A stretch of 64,000 bases of DNA from assembly GCF_011045215.1 (NCBI RefSeq), contig NZ_CP049201.1. The stretch is one strand, 5' to 3'. The notes beneath the pieces were generated by a model. That model worked only from the letters and a program-made list of their open reading frames with translations, did no database searches and was not told where the DNA came from. A program made the position numbers and the translations under genes. The stretch's first letter is position 1, and the number at the start of each line of letters is the position of its first letter. Shown here in pieces: positions 1-30,063 of the stretch. This DNA comes from Escherichia coli. GTDB taxonomy: Bacteria; Pseudomonadota; Gammaproteobacteria; Enterobacterales; Enterobacteriaceae.

Positions 1-56
1 GCACTGCTGGACACCCAGCCCACATCCTGACGCGCTTCGCTTGTCTGCTGCTTCGC

Positions 57-81
57 CGGGGCATAAAAAATTTATGCCCCG
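57..81. other. Perfect inverted repeat / stem-loop (CGGGGCATAAA-aaa-TTTATGCCCCG)
   Basis: 11-bp arms read directly; no adjacent T-tract, so not a canonical intrinsic terminator. Confidence 0.5.
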
Positions 82-560
82 ACTCTCCAGCTCCTGTATC
101 AATCAGATAATTTCACGACGTCTTCCAGCTTATTGCCATCATCGACGGTCAGGCTCTTACGCAATCCCATCGCGCTGACTGCATGTTCTCGCCGCCTCAG
201 TGCGATTTTGACGGCCTTATCTGCCACCCCATCAAATCAAAAGCCCTCACGTCTTTTTCACGCTCAGCGTGAGAAATACAGCCATTCTGTTGTGTTGCTG
301 CGACATCGTTCAGGGGATGCTATTTATCCCCTGAAACGCGGGCTGTTCCCCCGTCACCTGCGCGCAGAAAAAACGCGTTTTTTTGTGCACGCACGGATCC
401 TTGACGGATCCAGCCGCCACGGGGGCCGGAAGGGCAAAAAGTCGTTCAAAAAAATTGTGCAAATTTGTGCACTATCGTGCAGTGTGCATCGTGCTGTTTT
501 CTGCGCAAAAAACGGATGGTAAATTTGTTCGTAGCAGGGAAATTTTAATGAGCGCAAGAC

Positions 561-1091
561 ATGAAGAAAGATTCATATCCTTATTTGATTTGCATGACTG
601 TTTCAGTGCTAGGGATTATTTTCCTCTTTTACTGGTGGAGGGCAGATATCTACAGGATTACATATCTTAATTCGCGTATATCCAATTATTACATCTTGTG
701 TAGTATGGGTATGTCCTTTTTCTTCTCCTTGTTTCTGGTGAAGAGGGGGGTAGTGAAGCAAAGTGGCTGGAAAGGACTGTCGGAATACCTGAAGGTTTAT
801 GCTGGCTCTTGCATTCTTACAGGGATATTCCTGATTATTCCTCTTATGATGGTGACTTATTTTTTACCAGGAGTAACATCATCATATGTTGCACCGTATG
901 AGTATACATCTGGTAGTTCAAGAAGCTGTTCCGGAGCGTTTGTTGATGATCCCGAACTGCATAAAAATATTCTTATTTGCTATCCGTATGGTAACTATGA
1001 ATATGACAATATTATCTATGTTGAAAAGAAAACTAATGCATTGGGCGTTGTTGTGACGTATGCACAGACTGCACGAGACGATGCTGAATAA
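561..1091 (+). CDS. Hypothetical polytopic membrane protein (about 3 predicted TM helices, soluble C-terminal ~80 aa); AT-rich cargo gene
   Basis: 176-aa ORF with three long hydrophobic segments; strongly AT-rich relative to flanking DNA; no family recognised. Confidence 0.5.
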   Translation: MKKDSYPYLICMTVSVLGIIFLFYWWRADIYRITYLNSRISNYYILCSMGMSFFFSLFLVKRGVVKQSGWKGLSEYLKVYAGSCILTGIFLIIPLMMVTYFLPGVTSSYVAPYEYTSGSSRSCSGAFVDDPELHKNILICYPYGNYEYDNIIYVEKKTNALGVVVTYAQTARDDAE

Positions 1092-1282
1092 GATACTACA
1101 GATATAGTCCACTTTTTTGTTTATTTGTCGGGATAAAAACAAATTACCCCGACTCACCATGTATTAATCTTCCGCTTTAAGTTAGTATTTTAGCTGCGCT
1201 GTCCTGCTATTCAGCAAAGCGGCGTACTTTAATGCGTCCTGTGCTTTCTGGAATTTAAGTGCATAGTCAGTGGCGATTTTTT

Positions 1283-1564
1283 CTAGTTCAGCGATTCGGT
1301 TGTTTTTGGTTTCCAGCCAATCAAGTAGCGCCAATACTTCAGGATCCCGACATCCAACACTGTTACGCGTGATTTTTCATAATGTTCGTCGGCAAGAGTT
1401 CGGCCAATTTTGAAATCTCCATCATCACCATAACCGGAGCAGGCATAAACAACCTGTGCTCCAGATATTCGCTGAATTGACATTTCCTCGCCGCAAATAG
1501 GGCATTTCGGTACTGGCACAGGTGAATAACGTTCACGTAATGCCTGATAGTTGATTTCGCTCAT
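1283..1564 (-). CDS. Small zinc-ribbon protein (CPICG...CSG); probably frameshifted, coding signal continues in another frame to 1185
   Basis: 93-aa ORF with CxxC...C motif; protein-like translation continues in a second frame (DPEVLALLDWLETKNNRIAELEK...) past the stop at 1283. Confidence 0.4.
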   Translation of the reverse strand: MSEINYQALRERYSPVPVPKCPICGEEMSIQRISGAQVVYACSGYGDDGDFKIGRTLADEHYEKSRVTVLDVGILKYWRYLIGWKPKTTESLN

Positions 1565-1627
1565 TAAGTCGTTCTCCTTGTTTATGTTCTGAGGTGGAGA
1601 GCAGGGCGAACTCGCCCTGATGTTGTG

Positions 1628-1939
1628 TTATTCAGGAAATAACGCCCGGATATTTCCGGCCATCTGACTGGTTATCTGTGCGGTTGATACTGGCTGTGAT
1701 GCGGGGCGTTCTGTCCTGGTTTGTGTCACTGATAACGCTTCATCATCAGCCCATGCAGCTAGTCGGTAAGCCTCTGCCGGATTCATTTTCAGAAGTGCCA
1801 GCCCGGCCAGAAAAGCCACACGTTGGCCGCTTTTGCGGGCTTCTGGTGTAAGGCTGTCCAGCCAGGCGCATGCTTCGCCTTCGTTCTTGACGGCGGCGGG
1901 CTTCAGATAGAAACTTATCCGTCTGGTTGGTGTCGTCAT
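1628..1939 (-). CDS. parR: ParR (StbB)-like centromere-binding protein
   Basis: 103 aa from Met at 1939; resembles plasmid R1 ParR (from memory); AAGGAG RBS; starts 4 nt after parM stop. Confidence 0.55.
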   Translation of the reverse strand: MTTPTRRISFYLKPAAVKNEGEACAWLDSLTPEARKSGQRVAFLAGLALLKMNPAEAYRLAAWADDEALSVTQTRTERPASQPVSTAQITSQMAGNIRALFPE

Positions 1940-1943
1940 TGGT

Positions 1944-2903
1944 TTACTCCTTGTCCATTGCGTACAGCCCATTAACCAGAGCAAACTGTGGCACCCCGTC
2001 CGCGATGAAAGTCGCATTAACTCCGCAGGCTTCGCGGATAGCGGGTGCCACAATCTCCGCCCCGCCACCGACAACCATCACCCGCCCGTAACCCGAAAAA
2101 ACCGCCAGCGCGCGGATCACGCGTTGTTTCAGTGTTTCTTCCTTTTCACGAATAACCGCCATCAGGCTGGCGTAATGCGCGTCATTGTGGATGTGTTGGC
2201 GCAACCAGGCTTCATCATGGCGATGTTCGATAATGGTATTGGCGATGTGGTGACTGGTACGCATACCGTTAGCGGCCATCACCGACAGCACGGCACCGGC
2301 CATCAGGGAGACGCCTACGTGTGGATCGCAAAACACCTGGCTGATACCTGCCAGTTGCCCCTGAACCTTTGCCACATCCAGCGTGGTTCCGCCTAAATCC
2401 ACAATCAGCAGGGATTCAAACGGACTCATGTCAGCCAGTGCTTTAAAGCCAGCCGGAATGGATTCAGGCATAACCCGCACGTTACGGATAGTGAATGCTT
2501 CGCCGTTCTGGTACTCCACCGGGCGCATAACGTTCGCTTTTTTGCGGTTGATGTTGGCCATGTCCGGCTGTGCGTTTGTGTCGAAATACTCGCTCAGTGG
2601 CAGGGTGACAACCACATCCACCTCCTGTGGCGTGATGCCTGATTTGACCAGCGTGTGATGAATGGCGATTACATTCACATCGCTGTACTGGTATTGCGTG
2701 TCGGTCGTCTGGACAAAGCGATCGCTGACCGGATCAAAACCATAGCGCACGCCATCAAGCATGTAGTTCGCGGGCTGCATGCCACCGAACGGCGCAGATC
2801 ATTCCGACTTGAAGCTGTTCGGGCTGATGGCGTTGCGGCGTTCGCCATTCTCAGTCCATGCCAGCTTGATGTTGGTGGAGCCGTCGTCGATACAAATTTT
2901 CAT
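1944..2903 (-). pseudogene. parM: ParM (StbA)-like actin-type partition ATPase, interrupted by in-frame TGA at 2799-2801
   Basis: N-terminus MKICIDDGSTNIKLAW...NSFKSE then TGA, then in-frame continuation SAPFGGMQPANYML...; strong similarity to R1 ParM (from memory), where this position is Trp. Confidence 0.75.
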
Positions 2904-2932
2904 GTCGCTTTTCCTTATGTTGATTAATTAAT

Positions 2933-3050
2933 CGTTTACGGGATTCTGAAATCCCGTTTTTGCCTGTTTTGTGTGCGCTTCATATATCGCGGCGCGTTTT
3001 TTGCTCATTTACGGGATTTGTGAATCCCGTTTCTGTCTGTTTTTTGTTTC
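2933..3050. repeat. Two copies (2933-2975, 3006-3050) of a ~45-bp repeat, each with palindrome ACGGGATT-N4-AATCCCGT; candidate parC-like centromere/operator
   Basis: Direct repeat with internal inverted repeat, immediately upstream of the parM start. Confidence 0.6.
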
Positions 3051-4533
3051 CACTGGTCAGGCCACCCCGCAGCAGGTCTGCTTTGCGGCGGGCACGTTCA
3101 GTGGTTTCACTGATTCTCTGTGCGTGCTCTGCGTCGCGGATGGCGCGCAGCATGTCAGAAAGCACGGTAACGGGGGTTTTCATGGTGTTCTGGTCCTGCT
3201 GAAGTGTGGATGCCAGACGTGCGGCGGCTTCGAGGTCTGATGCCCCCAGCTGTTCCAGATAGCTGGCGACCGGGTTATGGCGGATCTCCGTGCTGCTTAC
3301 GCCGTGATTACGGCTCAGGCGCTGCCAGAGCTGCGTGATTCGGCTGTCCGGGCGGGTATCCGGTTTGCGTACAATTTCAAATCCCTGCGGTGCAATGATG
3401 CTGCCGTCAACGTACAGGCTGCCGCCCCGTAACAGGTGCTGCATCTGCTGTTCACCGATATGCATGCCGAGAGATTCGGCAGATTCCCGCCATTCTTTAG
3501 CGAGTAATTCGTGGTTATCAGGCAAAGGCCGCTGCTGTTTGCGGCTCTGTGTCCAGCTCTGCATTTCATCACTGCTGTTTTTTGCCTGTTTGTCACGCAG
3601 CGAACGCATCAGCGCCCGGCGTTCGTGCCGTTTCAGTGAGCGCACCCATTCATCCACATCAACGCCGTCAGGAAGCTGCGGCCACGGTGCTGGCCGTTCT
3701 TCCGGCTGTTCTGTCCCGTTGTTGTCCGTTTCCTGTACACGGGGACAGTTATTGCCACGAGTCCAAGGGGCGGCAGGGCCGCTCTGAAGGTCAAAACCAT
3801 TTTCGCGGGAGCTGTCTTCCGCTTCCGGTTTGCGTCTTACCAGCTTCCAGTTATCCGGATGCGTGCATACGCGGGAAGACTCCCCGATGAGCGGCGACCA
3901 GATCCCGTAAATCTGTACACTCTGCTCACCGTAATCGTTCAGTTCATCTGCGAGGTCGTAGGCGGTGCGAATCAGGTAGTCTTTGCGTGGAACAAGCACG
4001 CCACCCTGTTTTTCAATGTAGGTGGCAAAACACCCGGCATCAGCGGCAGCGAGTACCGCATCCATTGCGTCATCCTTCAGCCGTTGCGGGCCTTCCGGGT
4101 TGCGTGCCATCTGGCTGGCAAGGCGGCGCAGTTCACGCCACACCTGACGGGAGGGGATACCAAAGAACTGGAACTGGCGGACCCGGTGAAGGCGCGCCCA
4201 GCCGATGGCGCGTTCCACGCTCTCGGCCATTGATTTTCCGGTTTCGTGGTCAACGCGTGGCTTGCCCGTTTTCGGGTCGATGCCATCCACGGCGCGGCTG
4301 TCCAGGTTCTTTCCGATGTAGGTGGCGATGTAGCTGGTTGGCGTGCCTTTTGAGCCGTCGACGTACTCCGCCTTAAAACGCGGAGTTATGTCATCGCCCA
4401 GCTCGTGGCGGTCTTCCTGAATGGCAATATCGCAGACGTGGGACACGATGGTTTCAATCTCGTCCGGATGTGCAAAGACCATCATATGCCAGTGCACAGT
4501 GCCGTCATGGTGAGGCTCCAGCGGTGTATTCAC
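2980..4533 (-). pseudogene. HUH-motif rolling-circle replication initiator, P2 gpA-like; apparently 5'-truncated
   Basis: 517-aa ORF begins at GTG right at the motif HHDGTVHWHMMVFAHPDE, preceded by in-frame TGA; upstream 300 bp is coding-like in two other frames. Confidence 0.5.
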
Positions 4534-4686
4534 TCAGCGAGGCACACCCGCCAGCAGTGTGATGCGCCAGCATTGCCGCAAATACGGAGGCCGGGGAGTC
4601 GTAATACGCCAGCAGTGATTCGCCATGCGGTGTCAGGCAGCGCAACGCCAGCCCGTGTGGTGTTAAGTCCACGCGGTAGCAGTCGT

Positions 4687-4836
4687 CTACTGTGAAATAA
4701 AGGGTGAGCGTTGTTCTTTAGCTGCCATTTCATCAATGACGGCTCGCTCTTCGAGGGACAGCCGAAGTGCCAGTCTTGGACCTGTGGCGGTGTTACGCGG
4801 AATGCGTGATCTGGTATCGTGAAGAACTTGTTTCAT
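4687..4836 (-). CDS. Small 49-aa ORF divergent from the XRE gene (possible Cox/excisionase-like or RHH regulator)
   Basis: ATG at 4836 to TAG at 4687; below the 60-aa ORF-track cutoff; position equivalent to cox in a P2-type early region. Confidence 0.3.
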   Translation of the reverse strand: MKQVLHDTRSRIPRNTATGPRLALRLSLEERAVIDEMAAKEQRSPFISQ

Positions 4837-4878
4837 AGTGGTATATTGTGATCATCTAATAGCTCATGAAATCATTTT

Positions 4879-4896
4879 GGTATCAAAAAAGATACC
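4879..4896. promoter_or_regulatory. Palindrome GGTATC-N6-GATACC in the divergent promoter region; candidate operator
   Basis: 6-bp perfect inverted arms with A6 spacer between divergent starts at 4836 and 4912. Confidence 0.35.
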
Positions 4897-4911
4897 TGTC
4901 AAGGTTTTTGT

Positions 4912-5316
4912 ATGAAAAATGATATTGGTCAGCGGTTGCGTGAGGAAAGGGAAAGATTGGGGCTTAGTCAAGTTGCTATGAGCGACATTGGTGGAGTCAA
5001 AAAGCTAACTCAGCTTAGATATGAGAAAGGAGATAGCTTTCCTGATGCTGCGTATTTGGCAGCGCTGTCTCGTTTTGGCCTTGATGTTCAGTATGTTGTG
5101 TTGGGAATTCACTCACCTGAAACTTATAACGATGATGAGCAGGAGTTGATTACTCGCTTTCGAGCAGCTTCGTTAGATGTAAAAAACGCGGTGATCGGGG
5201 CTTTAAAAGGTGCGGGCAGTGAAAAGGAAACTCAGCCATCAGGGCGTGAGTTAAATATTTCTGGTGGTAATAACCGTATCGCTGGTCGTGACTATAACGA
5301 AACTAAGGGTAGGTGA
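4912..5316 (+). CDS. XRE-family helix-turn-helix protein (repressor-like) with C-terminal tail carrying an NNRIAGRDYNE motif
   Basis: N-terminal HTH signature (IGQRLREERERLGLSQVAMSDIGGVKKLTQLRYEKG); low GC. Confidence 0.7.
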   Translation: MKNDIGQRLREERERLGLSQVAMSDIGGVKKLTQLRYEKGDSFPDAAYLAALSRFGLDVQYVVLGIHSPETYNDDEQELITRFRAASLDVKNAVIGALKGAGSEKETQPSGRELNISGGNNRIAGRDYNETKGR

Positions 5317-5331
5317 TAGTAGGGAGGTGAC

Positions 5332-5982
5332 ATGGCCGTCAACTCAAACGGTTCAAACAATCGCGTTGCTGGGCGTGATTTTCACGAAAAGAATATTCAG
5401 ATAGAGCGATATGATGGTTCTCATACCGTCAATATCGCAATCCCTTCGAATAATGATGATGACGCTCGCCCTTTGCTTAAGGCACAGCGTAAGGAGCTAA
5501 ATAGCTTGGTTGCTGCTATTGCAGAAGCTAGCAATACTGAAGCGTTTATTATTTGGCAAAAAGTACATGCGGAGATTGGTGTAGCTGGTATTGATGATAT
5601 GACAATAAATCAATATAAAACAGCGGAGAGTTTTCTGCATGCAATGCTTGAGCGATGTAAAGATCATGATGCCTGTAAGACTCTTGTAAGTTTATTACTA
5701 CGTAACAGTGAAGACTGTGGACTTCGACAAAAACTTCTGCGGTATTGCCATATCAATTTCGGTACAGGACGTTTAAACGATCTTACTCGTTCTCAGTTAC
5801 AGTCTGCATTGTCGTGGTTAGAGCAACAATCGGTATCAAGCCACTCAGAGAATTCGACCTTACCAGAAGTTCGCCTTCGTGCTTCAGAATTAATCCGATT
5901 TTATCCAAAAGAAATAATATTCTTTATCTGCGTAGGGGTTTTGGTAGGCGGAGCCATTTCTAGGATGTTTTTTAATTTGTAA
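5332..5982 (+). CDS. Hypothetical protein, cytoplasmic domain plus single C-terminal transmembrane anchor; N-terminus repeats the NNRVAGRDFHE motif
   Basis: 216 aa; strong RBS AGGGAGGTGA 5 nt upstream; C-terminal hydrophobic segment IIFFICVGVLVGGAI; low GC. Confidence 0.6.
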   Translation: MAVNSNGSNNRVAGRDFHEKNIQIERYDGSHTVNIAIPSNNDDDARPLLKAQRKELNSLVAAIAEASNTEAFIIWQKVHAEIGVAGIDDMTINQYKTAESFLHAMLERCKDHDACKTLVSLLLRNSEDCGLRQKLLRYCHINFGTGRLNDLTRSQLQSALSWLEQQSVSSHSENSTLPEVRLRASELIRFYPKEIIFFICVGVLVGGAISRMFFNL

Positions 5983-6011
5983 TCTTACTTGAGCTAAATT
6001 GAGGCAATGAC

Positions 6012-6359
6012 ATGAAAGTAAAAAAGGTTCAACTATTAGTTGCTTTTTTATCTATGTTTTCTTTTTCCGCCGTCGCAATGCCTTTTAAAACTATTGAACG
6101 TGAGAGTTTCAATGGAGTATGGCCATTTAATACAGATGAGGTTCAATTGCAGTGTCTTGATGGTAATCCTTATGTGATGAATTTTGACGATAATAAGTTA
6201 TATGCGCTTACAGGTTTGGCTCGAATAAAAGGTAAAACATTTGGTGCGTTACCGTTAGATAACAATAATCCATTTTGGCTAGATAATGATGCCGCCCCAG
6301 GGTTAAAAAAGAATCTGGGGGACGTCACTAAGGCTGCATTTGATTTATGTGATAAGTAA
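6012..6359 (+). CDS. Small secreted/periplasmic protein with signal peptide (tentatively DUF2511/YebY-like)
   Basis: 115 aa; N-terminal signal peptide MKVKKVQLLVAFLSMFSFSAVA; family assignment from memory only. Confidence 0.55.
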   Translation: MKVKKVQLLVAFLSMFSFSAVAMPFKTIERESFNGVWPFNTDEVQLQCLDGNPYVMNFDDNKLYALTGLARIKGKTFGALPLDNNNPFWLDNDAAPGLKKNLGDVTKAAFDLCDK

Positions 6360-6364
6360 CAAAA

Positions 6365-7366
6365 ATGTCGGTTCGTAAAACTCCATCAGGTAAATGGCTT
6401 TGCGAATGTTATCCCTACGGAGCATCGGGAAAACGCATTCGTAAACAGTTTGCGACAAAAAGTGAGGCGCTCTCTTATGAGCGCCGTTTAATGAATAGTA
6501 GAGTTGGAGACGAGTTTCAAGATGGTTCTGGTCCTCGTCTTTCTGAGTTGATTGCTCGTTGGTTTGAGATGTACGGAAAAACCTTGTCCTCTGGTGCAGA
6601 GCGCAAAGTCAAACTTGAGGCGATTTGTTCTAGGCTGGGAGATCCATTTGCTTCTCAGTTTGACAAAAATATGTTTGCTACTTATCGGGAAAGAAGGCTA
6701 TCAGGAGAATGGAATCCCAAGGGGAAGAAAAAACTTAGTGAAGCAACCGTTAATCGCGAGCAGTCATATCTACATGCTGTTTTTGCCGAACTGAAGCGCC
6801 TTGGGGAGTGGTCTGGTGAAAACCCCCTGACTGGAATTCGCAAGTTTCGTGAGGAAGAAAAGGAGCTGGCGTTTCTGTATGTAGATGAGATTGAACGCCT
6901 TTTGATTGCGTGTGATGATTCACGGAATAAAGATTTGGGGGTTGTTGTCCGTATTGGGCTTGCGACTGGTGCTCGGTGGAGTGAAGCAGAAGGATTAAAG
7001 CAATCTCAAGTACTGCCCGGTCGAATCACATTTGTTAAAACTAAAGGAAAGAAGAACCGCACTGTACCGATTTCACCTCAATTGCAGGCTATGCTTCCTA
7101 AAAAACGAGGAGCGCTATTTTCACCATGTTATGAGGCTTTTGACGCTGCAATTAAGAGAGCGAAGATAGAGCTCCCTGATGGGCAATTAACTCATGTGCT
7201 ACGTCACACGTTTGCTAGTCATTTTATGATGCGGGGCGGAAATATTCTTGTGTTGCAAAAAATACTGGGGCATAGCGATATAAAAATGACTATGCGTTAT
7301 GCGCATTTTGCTCCGGGTCATTTAGAGGCTGCTGTTGAATTAAACCCTTTTGACAATAGAGGGTAA
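6365..7366 (+). CDS. int: Tyrosine recombinase, P2-type phage integrase
   Basis: 333 aa; motifs LATGARWSEA, ITFVKTKGKKNRTVPIS, HVLRHTFASHFMMRGGNILVLQKILGH, MRYAHF closely match P2 Int (from memory). Confidence 0.9.
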   Translation: MSVRKTPSGKWLCECYPYGASGKRIRKQFATKSEALSYERRLMNSRVGDEFQDGSGPRLSELIARWFEMYGKTLSSGAERKVKLEAICSRLGDPFASQFDKNMFATYRERRLSGEWNPKGKKKLSEATVNREQSYLHAVFAELKRLGEWSGENPLTGIRKFREEEKELAFLYVDEIERLLIACDDSRNKDLGVVVRIGLATGARWSEAEGLKQSQVLPGRITFVKTKGKKNRTVPISPQLQAMLPKKRGALFSPCYEAFDAAIKRAKIELPDGQLTHVLRHTFASHFMMRGGNILVLQKILGHSDIKMTMRYAHFAPGHLEAAVELNPFDNRG

Positions 7367-7472
7367 AAAGTGGCGATAAAAAGTGACAATAGATTCAAAT
7401 GGCGTCGTATAGAGCTATTTGCAAAGTTAATAAAATCATAAGGTTATGATTTATAAATGGTGGTTGATAGTT

Positions 7473-7527
7473 TTTAAAATCCCTCGGCGTTCGCGCTGTG
7501 CGGGTTCAAGTCCCGCTCCGGGTACCA
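7473..7527 (+). other. leuZ: 3' ~55 nt of tRNA-Leu (leuZ) ending in CCA: attachment-site core; not an intact tRNA
   Basis: TTTAAAATCCCTCGGCGTTCGCGCTGTGCGGGTTCAAGTCCCGCTCCGGGTACCA matches the leuZ 3' part; upstream sequence only partly tRNA-like, no acceptor-stem 5' strand. Confidence 0.8.
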
Positions 7528-7570
7528 TGGGAAAGATAAGAATAAAATCAAAGCAATAAGCAGTGTCGTG

Positions 7571-7596
7571 AAACCACCTTCGGGTGGTTTTTTTGT
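7571..7596 (+). terminator. Intrinsic terminator of the leuZ tRNA operon
   Basis: AAACCACC-TTCG-GGTGGTTT stem followed by T-run. Confidence 0.8.
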
Positions 7597-7722
7597 GCCT
7601 GCAACTTGTCGTTACACCCTCCTTAATTTTTAATCACCGGCAAAGCCACTCAAAAAGTATCTCTGATACGGACCGGCATGTAAGATAGGTGCTGGCGAGT
7701 TGAGATCCACAAGGAAAAGCGT

Positions 7723-8388
7723 ATGAAAACGGGACCGTTAAACGAAAGTGAGTTGGAATGGCTGGACGATATTCTGACCAAATACAACACTGACCACGCC
7801 ATCCTTGATGTGGCGGAGCTGGACGGTTTATTGACGGCAGTGTTGAGTTCTCCGCAAGAGATTGAACCGGCACAGTGGCTGGTTGCCGTGTGGGGTGGGG
7901 CTGACTATGTGCCGCGCTGGGCGTCAGAGAAAGAGATGACGCGCTTTATGAACCTGGCTTTTCAACATATGGCCGATACCGCAGAGCGTCTGAACGAATT
8001 CCCGGAGCAGTTTGAGCCGTTATTCGGCTTGCGAGAAGTTGATGGCAGCGAGCTGACGATTGTTGAGGAGTGGTGCTTTGGCTATATGCGGGGCGTGGCA
8101 CTTTCTGACTGGTCAACATTGCCCGATTCGTTAAAACCAGCGCTGGAGGCGATAGCGCTGCACGGTACTGAGGAAAACTTCGAGCGGGTAGAGAAGATGT
8201 CGCCAGAAGCGTTTGAAGAGAGCGTAGATGCCATTCGACTGGCGGCGCTTGATTTACATGCATACTGGATGGCGCATCCGCAGGAAAAAGCTGTTCAGCA
8301 ACCGATCAAAGCAGAAGAGAAACCGGGGCGTAACGATCCTTGTCCGTGCGGCAGTGGTAAGAAATTTAAGCAGTGCTGCCTGCATTAA
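7723..8388 (+). CDS. yecA: UPF0149 protein YecA with C-terminal SEC-C zinc motif
   Basis: 221 aa; C-terminal [13 protein letters not shown]; K-12 synteny. Confidence 0.9.
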
Positions 8389-8449
8389 GAAGTCAAATTG
8401 GGTGTCAGCGTTAATTCTGGCACCCAATAAGGAATTTGAGGCTATCTAA

Positions 8450-9661
8450 TCACCCCACTTCTGGTAACAACCCTGCCGCAATCAAAAATTGCACGCCAAT
8501 CACAGCAATACCACAGAGAAACACCACCACCAGCGCCGGACGACCACCTTTGACCCGGTAACCCGCTTGAGGATTGTGCCTTCTGCTTTGCCAGGTCAAC
8601 AGCGAAGGGATAATCAATGCCAGTACCGCCAGCGCCACACCGGCGTAACCCAGCGCCATCACAAATCCTCGTGGATAAAACAGTGCAAACGCCAACGGCG
8701 GCAGAAAGGTAATTGCTCCAGTTTGCAATCGTCCACCAACGGTATTTGAACGCTGAAACAAATCAGCCAGATAATCAAATAAGCCTAACGCAACGCCGAG
8801 AAATGACGTGGCGAGGGCTAAATCAGCAAATAAATGCACTGCCAGCTCAACATGCGGAGAGGCCACCATTTCGCGTAACGCCTGTAACAGCCCGTTTAAT
8901 CCGGCATGATTAGCCAGCAATCCCATAAAGGTTGTTGAATCAATGCTGCCAAGCGTCGCCACCTGCCAGAAAATATATGCCACCAGGGGGATCGCACTAC
9001 CGATTATAAACACCCAGCGTAGCTTACGAATGTTGCCATCCATATAGCTGACAATACTCGGCACGCTACCGTGAAAACCAAACGACGTAAAAATCACCGG
9101 GATTGCAGACAGTGCCAGCCCCTGTTGCAACGGCAGGGTTAAAAGATTCACTTTGTGAATATGCGGTAGCAGCAATACCAACATCACCACCAAAAAAATA
9201 ATTTTGGCGCTGAACAGAAAACGGTTAAATAAATCGACCAGCGATGTTCCAACACAAACCACGCCACCGGCAACAAAAGTGAACAACAGCACGCCAGCGG
9301 TTGCCGACATTGAAATACCTGTCCAGTCGCTGATGCTGGAGGCCAACAATTCACCGGCACCGCTGATGTATGCCGCAGTCAGAGCATACATTAAGAACAT
9401 CATACTGAAGCCCGTCAGCCATTGACCGTAGCGTCCCAGATAGCGTTTTGCCAGCGTGCCCAGACCGGTATCTGCCGGAACATGCTGGTACACCTCCAGC
9501 AGTAATAGCGCCGTGTAGCACATCAACGCCCAAAGCCCAATCAACAAGATTAACGTAACGCTAAAACCAACACCGGCCGCAGCCAGCGGCATTGCCAGCA
9601 TGCCTGCGCCAATTGTGGTTCCCGCCACGATAAAAACACTTCCCAGGGTTCTGTTTTTCAC
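8450..9661 (-). CDS. tyrP: Tyrosine-specific transport protein
   Basis: 403 aa polytopic permease; synteny. Confidence 0.95.
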
Positions 9662-9752
9662 GCTTTCTTCTGTCCTGACGATCTTTATGAGTGATATCTG
9701 CGGCGCAGGTTAAGGCATAACGGCTGCTTCGTCAAACCGACGTTACATATGG

Positions 9753-9770
9753 TGTAAATATAAATGTACA
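9753..9770. promoter_or_regulatory. TyrR box upstream of tyrP (TGTAAA-N6-TGTACA)
   Basis: One mismatch to TGTAAA-N6-TTTACA consensus, in tyrP promoter region. Confidence 0.5.
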
Positions 9771-9852
9771 ATAAAAAGCATTCAGTCCTGCGCTGGCGCA
9801 AAGTCTTCATAAGCGGCAATCGCTACGCTAGGCTTTTTTTTGAGGAGGAACG

Positions 9853-10092
9853 ATGGACTCTATTCACGGTCATGAAGTGTTAAATATGATGATTGAATCA
9901 GGCGAGCAATATACGCATGCCAGTCTGGAAGCTGCGATTAAAGCGCGTTTTGGTGAACAGGCACGTTTTCACACTTGCTCGGCAGAAGGGATGACAGCGG
10001 GAGAGCTGGTAGCGTTTCTGGCAGCAAAAGGCAAATTGATAGCTTCAGAAGAAGGTTTTTCGACCGATCAGAGTAAGATTTGCCGTCACTGA
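9853..10092 (+). CDS. yecH: Small protein YecH
   Basis: 79 aa; synteny. Confidence 0.85.
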   Translation: MDSIHGHEVLNMMIESGEQYTHASLEAAIKARFGEQARFHTCSAEGMTAGELVAFLAAKGKLIASEEGFSTDQSKICRH

Positions 10093-10129
10093 TTTGAAAC
10101 GGCGGCAGAAAACCTGCCGCCTGAGAGCA

Positions 10130-10627
10130 TTAGTTTTGTGTGTCGAGGGTAGAGAGTTCTTTGTCGATAAAATACAGACCTTCGCCGCTTTTGCCTGCCA
10201 GGCTTAATTTATCAATAATCGATTTGAACAGTTTCTCTTCTTCATGCTGCTCAGAAACATACCATTGCAGGAAATTAAATGTTGGGTAGTCCTGATTGGT
10301 CATTGCAGCATGAGCCAGTTCGTTAATTTTCTGGGTGATTAATTGTTCGTGTTTATAGGTTTCCTGGAATAATTCATCAAGTGAGGAATATTCAGCAAAC
10401 GGAGATTCAACGGTATTAATACGCGGTAAATTGCCGGTATCAGTCAGGTAATCAAACAGACGCTGCATATGCGTCATCTCTTCCTGGGCGTGACGGCGCA
10501 GGAACGCGGCAGCACCTTCGAAGGTATGATAGCTGCACCAGGCGCTCATTTGCTGATAAAGCAGTGAAGAGTACAGTTCCAGGTTCATCTGCTCATTAAG
10601 TTTTTCAATCATTTCTGGTTTCAGCAT
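10130..10627 (-). CDS. ftnA: Ferritin
   Basis: 165 aa from [13 protein letters not shown]; ORF-track start is 5 codons upstream. Confidence 0.95.
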
Positions 10628-10797
10628 GATAGTGCTCCACAAAGGTTATATTTGTTGCTGTGGCGTCACTATAATTTGTTATTTTATTATTTGCAAAAGG
10701 TAAAATATAAACTTCAATTATTAAAAATACGAATGGGAATAAAACGCATTACCGCTATTTCTTTAATCAGCGAAGATCCCCTCGCTGATTAAAATAT

Positions 10798-11121
10798 TTA
10801 GAGAAAGACAGGGAAGGCGGAATGATGGCACTGATATGACAAAGTGAATTCCGTATTCAAACATAAGGAACCCGCAAAAAGGCTACAGTTGCCTACTGGC
10901 TGACCAAAGGGGATCGCGTGGGTATAGCCTTCCTGCTGGCATGCGCGATCGGCGATCCCGCGACTGACATAACGATCGGTATGGGCATGCTGCAAAAAAG
11001 CCTGGTCATAAACCAACCGTACAATACCTGTTGCCGCGTCAACTTCGCTCACATGGGCCTGGCGAGTAACTGTACACCCCGCCAGCGTTATTAATGAAAG
11101 AGTCAGAATCAGAAGTCTCAT
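10798..11121 (-). CDS. yecR: Lipoprotein YecR
   Basis: 107 aa; signal peptide with lipobox LAGC. Confidence 0.85.
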   Translation of the reverse strand: MRLLILTLSLITLAGCTVTRQAHVSEVDAATGIVRLVYDQAFLQHAHTDRYVSRGIADRACQQEGYTHAIPFGQPVGNCSLFAGSLCLNTEFTLSYQCHHSAFPVFL

Positions 11122-11285
11122 GGTCCAGCCAGAAGAGTAAGAGAAAGCACTATTTTACGCGTTACAGCGCTGCGACAATGGCCGGAAAAGACGCCTGGCA
11201 GGCGCTATTTCTTGCCATCTGTAGGTGTCAGAAATAGGGGGGCTGTTTTTGGATTATCATTTTTATAACATTAAAGGGGTATTTA

Positions 11286-11301
11286 TGTGATTTGTATCAC
11301 A
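11286..11301. promoter_or_regulatory. CRP binding site (TGTGA-N6-TCACA) upstream of azuC
   Basis: Perfect match to CRP half-sites. Confidence 0.6.
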
Positions 11302-11383
11302 TAAAGATTGATTTTTGTGATGGTTGTCATATTATAAGCGCAAAGACAATAACACCTGTATAACAAATGGTCGGAGTGCCGCG

Positions 11384-11470
11384 ATGAAACTGCGCAAAAT
11401 CCTGAAAAGTATGTTCAATAACTATTGCAAGACGTTCAAAGACGTACCGCCAGGCAATATGTTCCGATAA
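11384..11470 (+). CDS. azuC: 28-aa small protein AzuC (dual-function AzuCR/IsrB RNA)
   Basis: ATG...TAA encodes MKLRKILKSMFNNYCKTFKDVPPGNMFR; absent from ORF track (<60 aa). Confidence 0.85.
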   Translation: MKLRKILKSMFNNYCKTFKDVPPGNMFR

Positions 11471-11474
11471 CAAA

Positions 11475-11499
11475 AAACCTGCTCCGGCAGGTTTTTTTG
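11475..11499 (+). terminator. Intrinsic terminator of azuC
   Basis: ACCTGC-TCCG-GCAGGT stem then T7. Confidence 0.8.
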
Positions 11500-11584
11500 T
11501 GTCCTGATGACGGTGGATGTGACTATCGTTGAAGATGTGAAGCCGCTACTATAACGGTTTTCAAAATGCTATCAGGAGTTTACG

Positions 11585-11836
11585 ATGTCCCAGCCGCTGA
11601 ATGCCGATCAGGAACTGGTTTCTGATGTGGTTGCTTGCCAGTTGGTTATCAAACAAATTCTGGATGTTCTCGATGTAATCGCGCCCGTTGAAGTTCGCGA
11701 AAAAATGTCCAGCCAGCTGAAGAATATCGACTTTACTAACCATCCCGCCGCCGCAGACCCGGTCACCATGCGGGCAATCCAAAAAGCCATCGCGCTGATT
11801 GAACTCAAGTTTACCCCACAGGGCGAATCCCATTAA
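11585..11836 (+). CDS. yecJ: Small protein YecJ
   Basis: 83 aa; synteny. Confidence 0.85.
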
Positions 11837-11914
11837 AAAACCGCTGCTTCAAAAAGATGAGGCAGCGGTTTCTCAAAAACTTCATCGGCGCAATGCATTA
11901 GCGCCGATGTATGA

Positions 11915-12418
11915 TCAATGCAGCTGATGCGACACGACATTCAGAACATGTTGGTCGGTCTGCACTGGGCACATACCCGCAAGTTTCGCACTGCGCACTT
12001 CATCAAGAATGGTTTGCAGCAACAGGCCATCATGCTGCTGTTCTTTTTCCAGATCGCGCAGGAAATTGACGGTTGAATCATCATTCAGTTCTTTCGCTTC
12101 ATCGGCTAACTGCGCCAGCGTGCTTGAACGTTGCTCGTATTCTTCCATCGTTTTTTGGAACAGTTCTTCCAGAGAGTTCAGTTTTTCACCAGGAACATCA
12201 ATGGCTTTAACGATGGGGGTAGCGCCGACACTCTTCATAAAGTTAAACATGCGCATCATTTGGGTCACATTACTCTGTGCCTGGGCGCGAAGGAAAGTGG
12301 CGGTGCCGTTCAGACTCTGTTCAGAACACCAGTTACTCAGGTGAAGGTAGAGATTGGATGCGTAAAACTCGCGGTTCATTTGAGAGTTGAGTTTGAGAAG
12401 CATTCCAGCGGTTGCCAT
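11915..12418 (-). CDS. ftnB: Ferritin-like protein FtnB
   Basis: 167 aa ferritin-fold. Confidence 0.9.
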
Positions 12419-29202: not shown

Positions 29203-30063
29203 ATGACTTCATCTCTGCCCTGTGGGCAAACGTCTTTATTGTTACAGATGACCGAGCGCCTGGCGCTTTCCGACGCGCATTTTCGTCGGATAAGTCAATT
29301 GATCTATCAACGAGCCGGGATCGTTCTGGCTGACCATAAACGCGACATGGTTTACAACCGACTGGTTCGTCGTTTGCGTTCGCTGGGACTGACGGATTTC
29401 GGTCATTATCTGAACTTGCTGGAATCTAATCAGCACAGCGGTGAGTGGCAGGCGTTTATCAATTCGCTGACCACGAATCTGACGGCATTTTTCCGTGAGG
29501 CACATCATTTCCCTCTGCTCGCGGATCACGCACGTCGCCGTTCTGGCGAGTATCGCGTATGGAGCGCGGCGGCTTCGACCGGCGAAGAGCCGTACAGCAT
29601 TGCGATGACGCTGGCTGACACATTGGGCACCGCGCCCGGACGCTGGAAAGTGTTTGCCAGTGATATCGACACCGAAGTGCTGGAAAAAGCCAGAAGCGGT
29701 ATCTATCGCCATGAAGAGTTGAAAAACCTGACGCCGCAGCAACTGCAACGGTATTTCATGCGAGGGACGGGACCGCATGAAGGGCTGGTACGCGTGCGTC
29801 AGGAGCTGGCGAACTATGTTGATTTTGCCCCGCTGAATTTACTGGCGAAACAGTACACCGTGCCGGGGCCGTTTGATGCGATCTTCTGTCGTAACGTCAT
29901 GATCTACTTCGATCAAACTACCCAGCAGGAGATTTTGCGCCGCTTTGTTCCGCTCCTTAAACCCGACGGATTGCTGTTTGCGGGTCACTCTGAAAACTTT
30001 AGCCACCTCGAGCGCCGCTTCACGCTGCGTGGTCAGACGGTGTATGCGCTAAGTAAGGATTAA
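29203..30063 (+). CDS. cheR: Chemotaxis methyltransferase CheR
   Basis: 286 aa. Confidence 0.95.

Follow-up and report, generated by a model that had tools for sequence, protein, structure and literature searches.

Deletions in the early operon truncate the gpA replication gene of a P88-like Escherichia coli prophage, very probably as ordinary prophage decay

The gpA-like replication gene in the stretch of Escherichia coli DNA analysed here (64,000 nucleotides of contig NZ_CP049201.1, referred to below as the window) is a 5'-truncated remnant, and it is very probably the outcome of ordinary prophage decay through two deletions in the early (lytic) operon. The first-pass annotation of this DNA had described a 517-aa ORF that starts at a GTG right after a TGA, with the HUH motif at its very beginning, and had taken it for a gpA-like gene truncated at its 5' end by deletion. 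We found the ORF as described, with the TGA occupying the three bases immediately 5' of the GTG, and comparison with intact relatives established the truncation. The reference for this comparison was the intact prophage of E. coli WP7-S18-ESBL-09 (NZ_AP022207.1), which occupies the same yecA/tyrP site, shares the immunity type and is called L002 below. The window lacks 1,363 bp of the gpA region relative to L002, and the same figure was obtained against a second reference from strain 03_3013 (L001).

Positions 1 to ~7473 of the window are, judging from gene content and order, the right-hand part of a P88-like prophage (Peduoviridae, Xuanwuvirus-type, P2-related). The boundary between prophage and chromosome lies near 7473, from which point prophage-free genomes match (position 74 of the query 7400-32000), and the chromosomal part belongs to E. 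coli, several strains of which match 24.5 kb of it at 99.4% identity; a tRNA scan of positions 1-12000 found no attachment-site tRNA. The plus strand carries the repressor gene, a 216-aa gene, a DUF2511 gene and the integrase gene, followed by chromosomal yecA and tyrP. The minus strand carries the early operon, the gpA remnant, parM, a partition gene, variable cargo and, at the edge of the window, only the very end of the portal gene; the structural genes lie outside the window. This arrangement agrees with the P88-type gene order (int, repressor, then the divergent early operon onward) apart from the two deletions, and the neighborhoods in P88 and in PhiR44_2 (XSB42701.1, 946 aa) resemble that of the window in the succession of gpA, parM, partition gene, variable locus and portal gene. 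Length agrees between the window and L002 for the repressor, 216-aa, DUF2511, integrase and partition genes. The cargo between the partition and portal genes differs from that of L002, and PADLOC defence models gave no match on the ORFs of the cargo or the immunity region. The prophage is not a complete functional P88-like genome, with its Cox-like gene and half of gpA deleted and a nonsense mutation in parM. The features discussed are collected in Table 1.

Table 1. Features of the prophage part of the window and blocks of alignment to the intact reference prophage L002 (window coordinates).
Feature	Position	Strand	Description
blastn block, L002 18405-18887	483-1		94.4% identity
ParR/StbB-like plasmid-stability gene	1628..1939	-	apparently intact; Pfam Plasmid_stab_B, E 4e-24
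parM (actin-like segregation ATPase) pseudogene	1944..2903	-	TGG>TGA at 2799-2801, W35 to stop
blastn block, L002 14314-17209	4523-1628		96.2% identity, 0 gaps over 2,896 bases
517-aa ORF, gpA pseudogene remnant	2980..4533	-	derived from a 946-aa replication endonuclease; 5 junk codons, gpA codons 435-946 at 4518-2983, stop at 2982-2980
Putative equivalent of ori nick region, GCCGCCCCTTGGACTCGTGGCAATAACTGT	3745..3774	-	retained; origin role putative
Tyrosine pair YIATY	4318..4332	-	retained; gpA Y497/Y501, ORF residues 68-72
HUH motif HWHMMVF	4474..4494	-	retained; gpA H443-W-H445 (L002 numbering)
Junction of deletion 2 (1,363 bp)	4519/4520	-	U codon 108 fused to gpA codon 434/435
U island, codons 47-108	4520..4705	-	from 129-aa gene U, phrog_3237, no assigned function
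blastn block, L002 12768-12955	4706-4519		1 mismatch in 188 bases
49-aa chimeric ORF	4687..4836	-	44 Arc-like codons, 5 out-of-frame U codons, stop
Junction of deletion 1 (2,073 bp)	4705/4706	-	Arc-like codon 44 fused to U codon 46/47
blastn block, L002 3413-10703	12000-4698		98.5% identity
Promoter-like site TTGACA-17-CAAAAT	4874..4902	-	retained; consensus match; function suggested by position
HTH immunity-repressor-like gene, 134 aa	4912..5316	+	intact; Pfam HTH_31/HTH_3; PHROG transcriptional repressor families
Integrase, 333 aa	6365..7366	+	intact; phage integrase

The early region of the window is collinear with L002 save for two gaps, of 2,073 and 1,363 bp. The longest block of alignment (7.3 kb) covers the chromosomal flank and the immunity region, and the immunity region itself, from the integrase through the start of the Arc-like gene, is 99.5% identical in the two prophages; L002 differs from the window in possessing the missing 2,073 and 1,363 bp and an intact parM. 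Deletion 1 took the 3' third of the Arc-like gene, all of the Cox-like excisionase/repressor gene, some seven small early ORFs and codons 1-46 of U, and deletion 2 took the end of U together with codons 1-434 of the 946 codons of gpA. Base-by-base reading of the junctions gave a strict microhomology of 2 bp at each, CA at 4706-4705 and TG at 4520-4519. Because each junction has just 2 bp of microhomology, we infer that both deletions arose by illegitimate recombination. The sequence fits either one complex event or two successive deletions.

The first-pass annotation had attributed the state of the region to a combination of deletion and frameshift decay. Its deletions are borne out, and the frame changes turn out to come from deletions of kilobase size, each of which fused two different genes out of frame, with no small frameshifts or sequencing-type indels involved; decay by small frameshifts was ruled out by the absence of gaps across the 2,896-base alignment. 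We also considered a natural mosaic boundary at 4706, and rejected it on the grounds that the break falls inside two ORFs and out of frame, and that the intact arrangement exists at the same locus with 99.5% identity.

The pieces upstream of the 517-aa ORF can be assigned to genes of the intact early operon, which in L002 consists of an Arc-like gene, a 67-aa Cox-like gene, DUF4761 and DUF4754 genes, several small ORFs, U and gpA. The first gene of this operon (L002 10565-10771) is an intact 68-aa ribbon-helix-helix ORF that matches phrog_3431, 'Arc-like repressor', over its full length (E 1e-28). PGAP left this ORF unannotated in L002 and called a small ORF on the opposite strand there. The 67-aa Cox-like excisionase/repressor belongs to phrog_575 (E 1e-27), the 129-aa U protein matches its family over its full length (E 5e-58), and the 946-aa gpA belongs to phrog_91. 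As the intact genes have full-length PHROG matches, the Arc-like, Cox-like, U and gpA genes represent real families.

In tblastn searches, residues 1-44 of the 68-aa Arc-like protein mapped to window positions 4836-4705 with 100% identity, and residues 47-108 of U mapped to 4705-4520 with 98.4% identity over 62 aa. The U frame holds YRVDLTPHGLALRCLTPHGESLLAYYDSPASVFAAMLAHH (ORF 4505..4672) as well as YRVDLTPHGLALRC, a stretch that the first-pass annotation had quoted. By these matches the 49-aa ORF and the U frame are true gene remnants and not chance ORFs, in keeping with the earlier suggestion that the coding-like sequence is what decay has left of the early region. They had been described as remnants in two frames other than that of the 517-aa ORF, which holds for the U remnant only. 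The 49-aa ORF shares the frame of the 517-aa ORF (their first positions, 4836 and 4533, are each divisible by three) and is parted from it by stop codons. The region had also been described as cox-B-A. In tblastn searches P2 Cox, Orf78, B and Orf80-83 had no homologue in the window or in L002, so that the label cox-B-A suits P2 and not this lineage; the Cox-like gene of phrog_575 has nevertheless been lost.

The 517-aa ORF consists almost entirely of gpA sequence. Its N-terminal sequence is MNTPLEPHHDGTVHWHMMVF, and its first five codons, GTG AAT ACA CCG CTG, are U-gene sequence read in the wrong frame. Residues 434-946 of the L002 gpA mapped by tblastn to window positions 4521-2983 with 95% identity, and residues 428-940 of the P88 gpA mapped to the same region with 97% amino-acid identity over 513 residues. 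The Pfam family Phage_GPA (PF05840) matches only residues 6-80 of the ORF (E 2.6e-28), covering profile positions 245-321 of 321. The intact L002 gpA covers profile positions 1-321 with its residues 185-509. Since the match begins at profile position 245, three quarters of the family domain are missing ahead of the point at which the ORF begins, and the remnant does not have the complete domain (profile 1-321). The remnant thus retains family similarity to the P2 gpA-type HUH initiators (PF05840; phrog_91), and it has lost gpA residues 1-434, that is, the N-terminal ~430 aa and the native start codon. Over its 512 gpA codons it has no additional stops or indels. We found no Shine-Dalgarno-like sequence before its GTG.

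The gpA of the prophage belongs with those of P88-type phages. Among isolated phages its nearest relatives are PhiR44_2, Chuche and P88, with 96-97% DNA identity over gpA. The protein has 946 aa in L001, L002 and PhiR44_2 and 940 aa in P88 (YP_009113059.1; Peduoviridae, Xuanwuvirus), which is 97% identical to the remnant; codons 1-434 are missing from the window copy. A PDB sequence search gave no match to a solved structure for the intact gpA. P2 gpA is the studied rolling-circle initiator of this kind and nicks an origin inside its own gene. P2 represents a different genus-level lineage, its gpA (NP_046795.1) has 761 aa, so that the P88-type gpA is ~185 aa longer, and unlike the P88-type phages it has no parMR cassette. 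In the tblastn comparison that had been proposed with P2 gpA, B and Cox, residues 390-687 of gpA mapped to the remnant from window position 4521 down to 3571 (E 1e-43), and B and Cox gave no match. The HUH motif and the tyrosines align between the two proteins, whose identity is 32-34%, and the putative equivalent of the ori nick region aligns as well.

Two of the sequence motifs of the initiator are present in the remnant and one is missing. HWHMMVF (ORF residues 14-20) aligns with H399-W-H401 of P2 gpA; the HUH motif lies at ~residue 440 in the 940-946-aa relatives and at ~400 in P2. YIATY aligns with Y450-IAK-Y454 of P2 gpA, and its tyrosines are the active-site pair (motif 3). The strand FLTVTCP of L002 (FITLTAP in P2), an FxTLT-like sequence that represents motif 1 of rolling-circle Rep proteins, stands at ~residue 375 of the L002 gpA, upstream of the breakpoint at 434/435, and is lost. 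The P2 record places the ori nick at 29892, within gene A, and the corresponding stretch of the window (3774-3745) has 25/30 bases identical to the P2 nick region by a hand count registered on the protein alignment. The cis-acting origin is probably still present in the remnant, because 25 of 30 bases match P2 despite a protein identity to P2 of only ~32% around this stretch. To our knowledge, no origin has been mapped in P88-type phages.

Taken with its junction, the sequence identifies the 517-aa ORF as an accidental reading frame that acquired a fortuitous GTG from out-of-frame U-gene sequence. The gpA remnant is most likely not made, and if it were made it would be inactive, since no recognizable ribosome-binding site precedes it and since motif 1, the remainder of the nuclease domain and the N-terminal region are gone. 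The first-pass annotation had added that the element would be left unable to replicate, and we infer the same, because 434 gpA residues including motif 1 are lost. A further and independent sign of decay is found next door, where W35 of parM has become a stop codon, and this supports the reading of the truncated gpA as prophage decay. The Pfam StbA_N/ParM match is divided there over two ORFs, the alignment to L002 has 0 gaps, and the ParR/StbB-like gene downstream of parM is collinear with L002 16898-17209.

In the collections searched, the deleted form appears only in the window. Among 5,426 complete E. coli RefSeq genomes, the intact 3.9-kb stretch from the Arc-like gene to gpA is matched in part by 1,412, and in 199 at least 80% of it is present in one place. 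The junctions of the window were found in none of the 5,426, in which the best one-place coverage of positions 2900-5000 was 86%. The 34-base sequence across junction 2, which occurs once in the window, had 0 exact matches in GTDB species representatives and 0 in JGI metagenome contigs, and neither the 517-aa product nor the 501-aa version starting at Met17 had an exact match in public assemblies. Because the junctions match no other assembly in the collections searched, the deletion allele is private, and its reality rests on one assembly. That 512 codons have stayed free of further lesions suggests that the deletions are recent; selection on the remnant would be the other, much less probable, reading.

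A rival reading is that the remnant has been kept for a new role, in which the truncated gpA, the retained ori-like site or both might interfere with replication of incoming P2- or P88-like phages, or that the deletion was itself selected for locking in place a prophage made useful by its immunity genes and accessory cargo. In its favour are the 512 lesion-free codons and the intact state of the repressor, the integrase and the promoter-like site of the early operon, and a review of the concept (PMC6379469) describes in general terms the proposal that 'grounded' prophages are selected for. We nevertheless consider this reading very unlikely: a recent deletion predicts the lack of further lesions equally well, the translation signal is absent, and an allele unique to this genome argues against a retained function that spreads. 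One specific form of the idea is that the remnant is expressed from the early promoter or a cryptic one, and acts as a decoy or dominant-negative protein that blocks rolling-circle replication of incoming P2- or P88-like phages. Such a decoy would amount to a dead replication gene recycled for superinfection exclusion, and it is less probable still than a new role in general.

The private nature of the junctions also bears on the question of whether the deletions could be artefacts of assembly or sequencing, the real genome having a complete early region and a gpA of full length. The absence of the junction sequence from all other collections searched is what an artefact would produce, and the first-pass annotation had itself raised sequencing errors. 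Assemblers collapse sequence lying between repeats. Such a collapse needs a longer shared sequence than the 2 bp found at the junctions, and it would have to account for two separate clean junctions on either side of a 186-bp island with 99.5% identity to the reference. Sequencing errors would leave small indels, against the 0 gaps over 2,896 bases, and the nonsense mutation in neighboring parM fits true decay. An artefact is on this evidence a highly improbable explanation.

There is next to no chance that the ORF encodes a genuine short replication protein of a family whose initiators can start at the HUH motif, for although the frame is long and open and the HUH motif, the YxxxY tyrosines and the ori-like stretch are all still there, no homologue was found that starts at this position (every annotated relative inspected has 940-946 aa, and P2 761 aa), the first five codons are wrong-frame U sequence, the Pfam match starts only at profile position 245 of 321 with motif 1 gone, and no ribosome-binding site is visible.

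Ordinary decay through two deletions thus remains by far the best explanation of the truncated gpA. According to this explanation, two deletions, probably by illegitimate recombination, have stripped the early operon of its Cox-like gene and of most of the 5' half of gpA. The promoter-like site, which stands ahead of the early operon with the divergent repressor gene on one side and the Arc-like remnant on the other, is still in place. Lacking the Cox-like factor, the prophage would be unable to excise or to enter the lytic programme, and lacking a complete gpA it could not start rolling-circle replication, while the intact repressor would still confer immunity.

For annotation, this means that the 517-aa ORF merits a flag as a pseudogene fragment rather than the name 'replication endonuclease', and that the two ORFs upstream, of 49 and 55 aa, are pieces of the Arc-like gene and of gene U. 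The event is of a known kind, microhomology-poor deletion in a decaying prophage in its textbook form, and raises no new question. Defective ('cryptic' or 'grounded') E. coli prophages are alike in having lost excision and replication through deletion and point mutation while keeping repressor and integrase, and the prophage of the window shows no categorical difference from them; it appears to be a young and private example. As judged from the genes it retains, it would be a 'grounded' prophage that still encodes an integrase and a repressor and may give immunity to its host, and, locked in place, it may still carry accessory cargo.

The partition gene parM of the prophage carries an in-frame TGG>TGA substitution that turns W35 into a stop codon, and this nonsense mutation is a second, independent inactivating lesion of the prophage. 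Directly upstream of parM we found a pair of direct repeats, 81% identical and 73 nt apart, which straddles the stop codon of gpA, the remnant of the replication endonuclease gene. Each of the two repeats contains the palindrome ACGGGATT-N4-AATCCCGT. All four P88-type loci compared have the same palindrome in the interval from gpA to parM; P2 lacks both parMR and the palindrome. These repeats and their palindrome may serve the phage partition cassette as its parC-like centromere or as an operator for ParR.

Features of the right-hand part of the prophage and of the reference locus L002 (window coordinates unless marked L002)
Feature	Position	Strand	Remarks
Variable locus	484-1628		between replication/partition genes and portal gene
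176-aa ORF	561-1091	plus	low GC (37-42%)
Ead/Ea22-like ORF, 93 aa	1283-1564	minus	
parM	1944-2903	minus	nonsense mutation at 2799-2801
Direct repeat copies, 43 nt each	2932-2974 and 3005-3047		81% identical, 73 nt apart
216-aa protein gene	5332-5982		phrog_5825, unknown function
DUF2511 protein gene	6012-6359		
Arc-like ORF, 68 aa	L002 10565-10771	plus (early-operon strand)	phrog_3431, E 1e-28, full length

The Arc-like ORF was located in L002, an intact prophage at the same chromosomal site in E. coli WP7-S18-ESBL-09 (NZ_AP022207.1), and corresponds to the window from 4836 onwards. At the same place in L002, RefSeq annotates the other strand, with a hypothetical ORF of 45 aa at 10579-10716; this is probably a strand mis-call in the public annotation.

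According to PMC9122126, P2-like phages have a defence hotspot at the position of the variable locus. In the window this locus contains the 93-aa Ead/Ea22-like ORF and the 176-aa ORF. Its cargo is shared, at 98.4% identity, by 61 complete E. coli genomes, and a PADLOC search of the cargo ORFs gave no match. The 176-aa ORF looks membrane-associated by eye, and its C-terminal half has a match in phrog_1416, a family of unknown function.

At the other end, a tRNA scan of positions 1-12000 found no tRNA gene at or near the boundary between prophage and chromosome (~7473, within 7367-7722), so on this side the attachment site next to yecA is no tRNA. The genes for the 216-aa and DUF2511 proteins are flanked by the repressor and integrase genes and transcribed with both; PADLOC returned no match for either of the two. 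Inspected by eye, the 216-aa protein has a hydrophobic C-terminal stretch and the DUF2511 protein appears to carry a signal peptide. Both genes look like accessory genes expressed during lysogeny.
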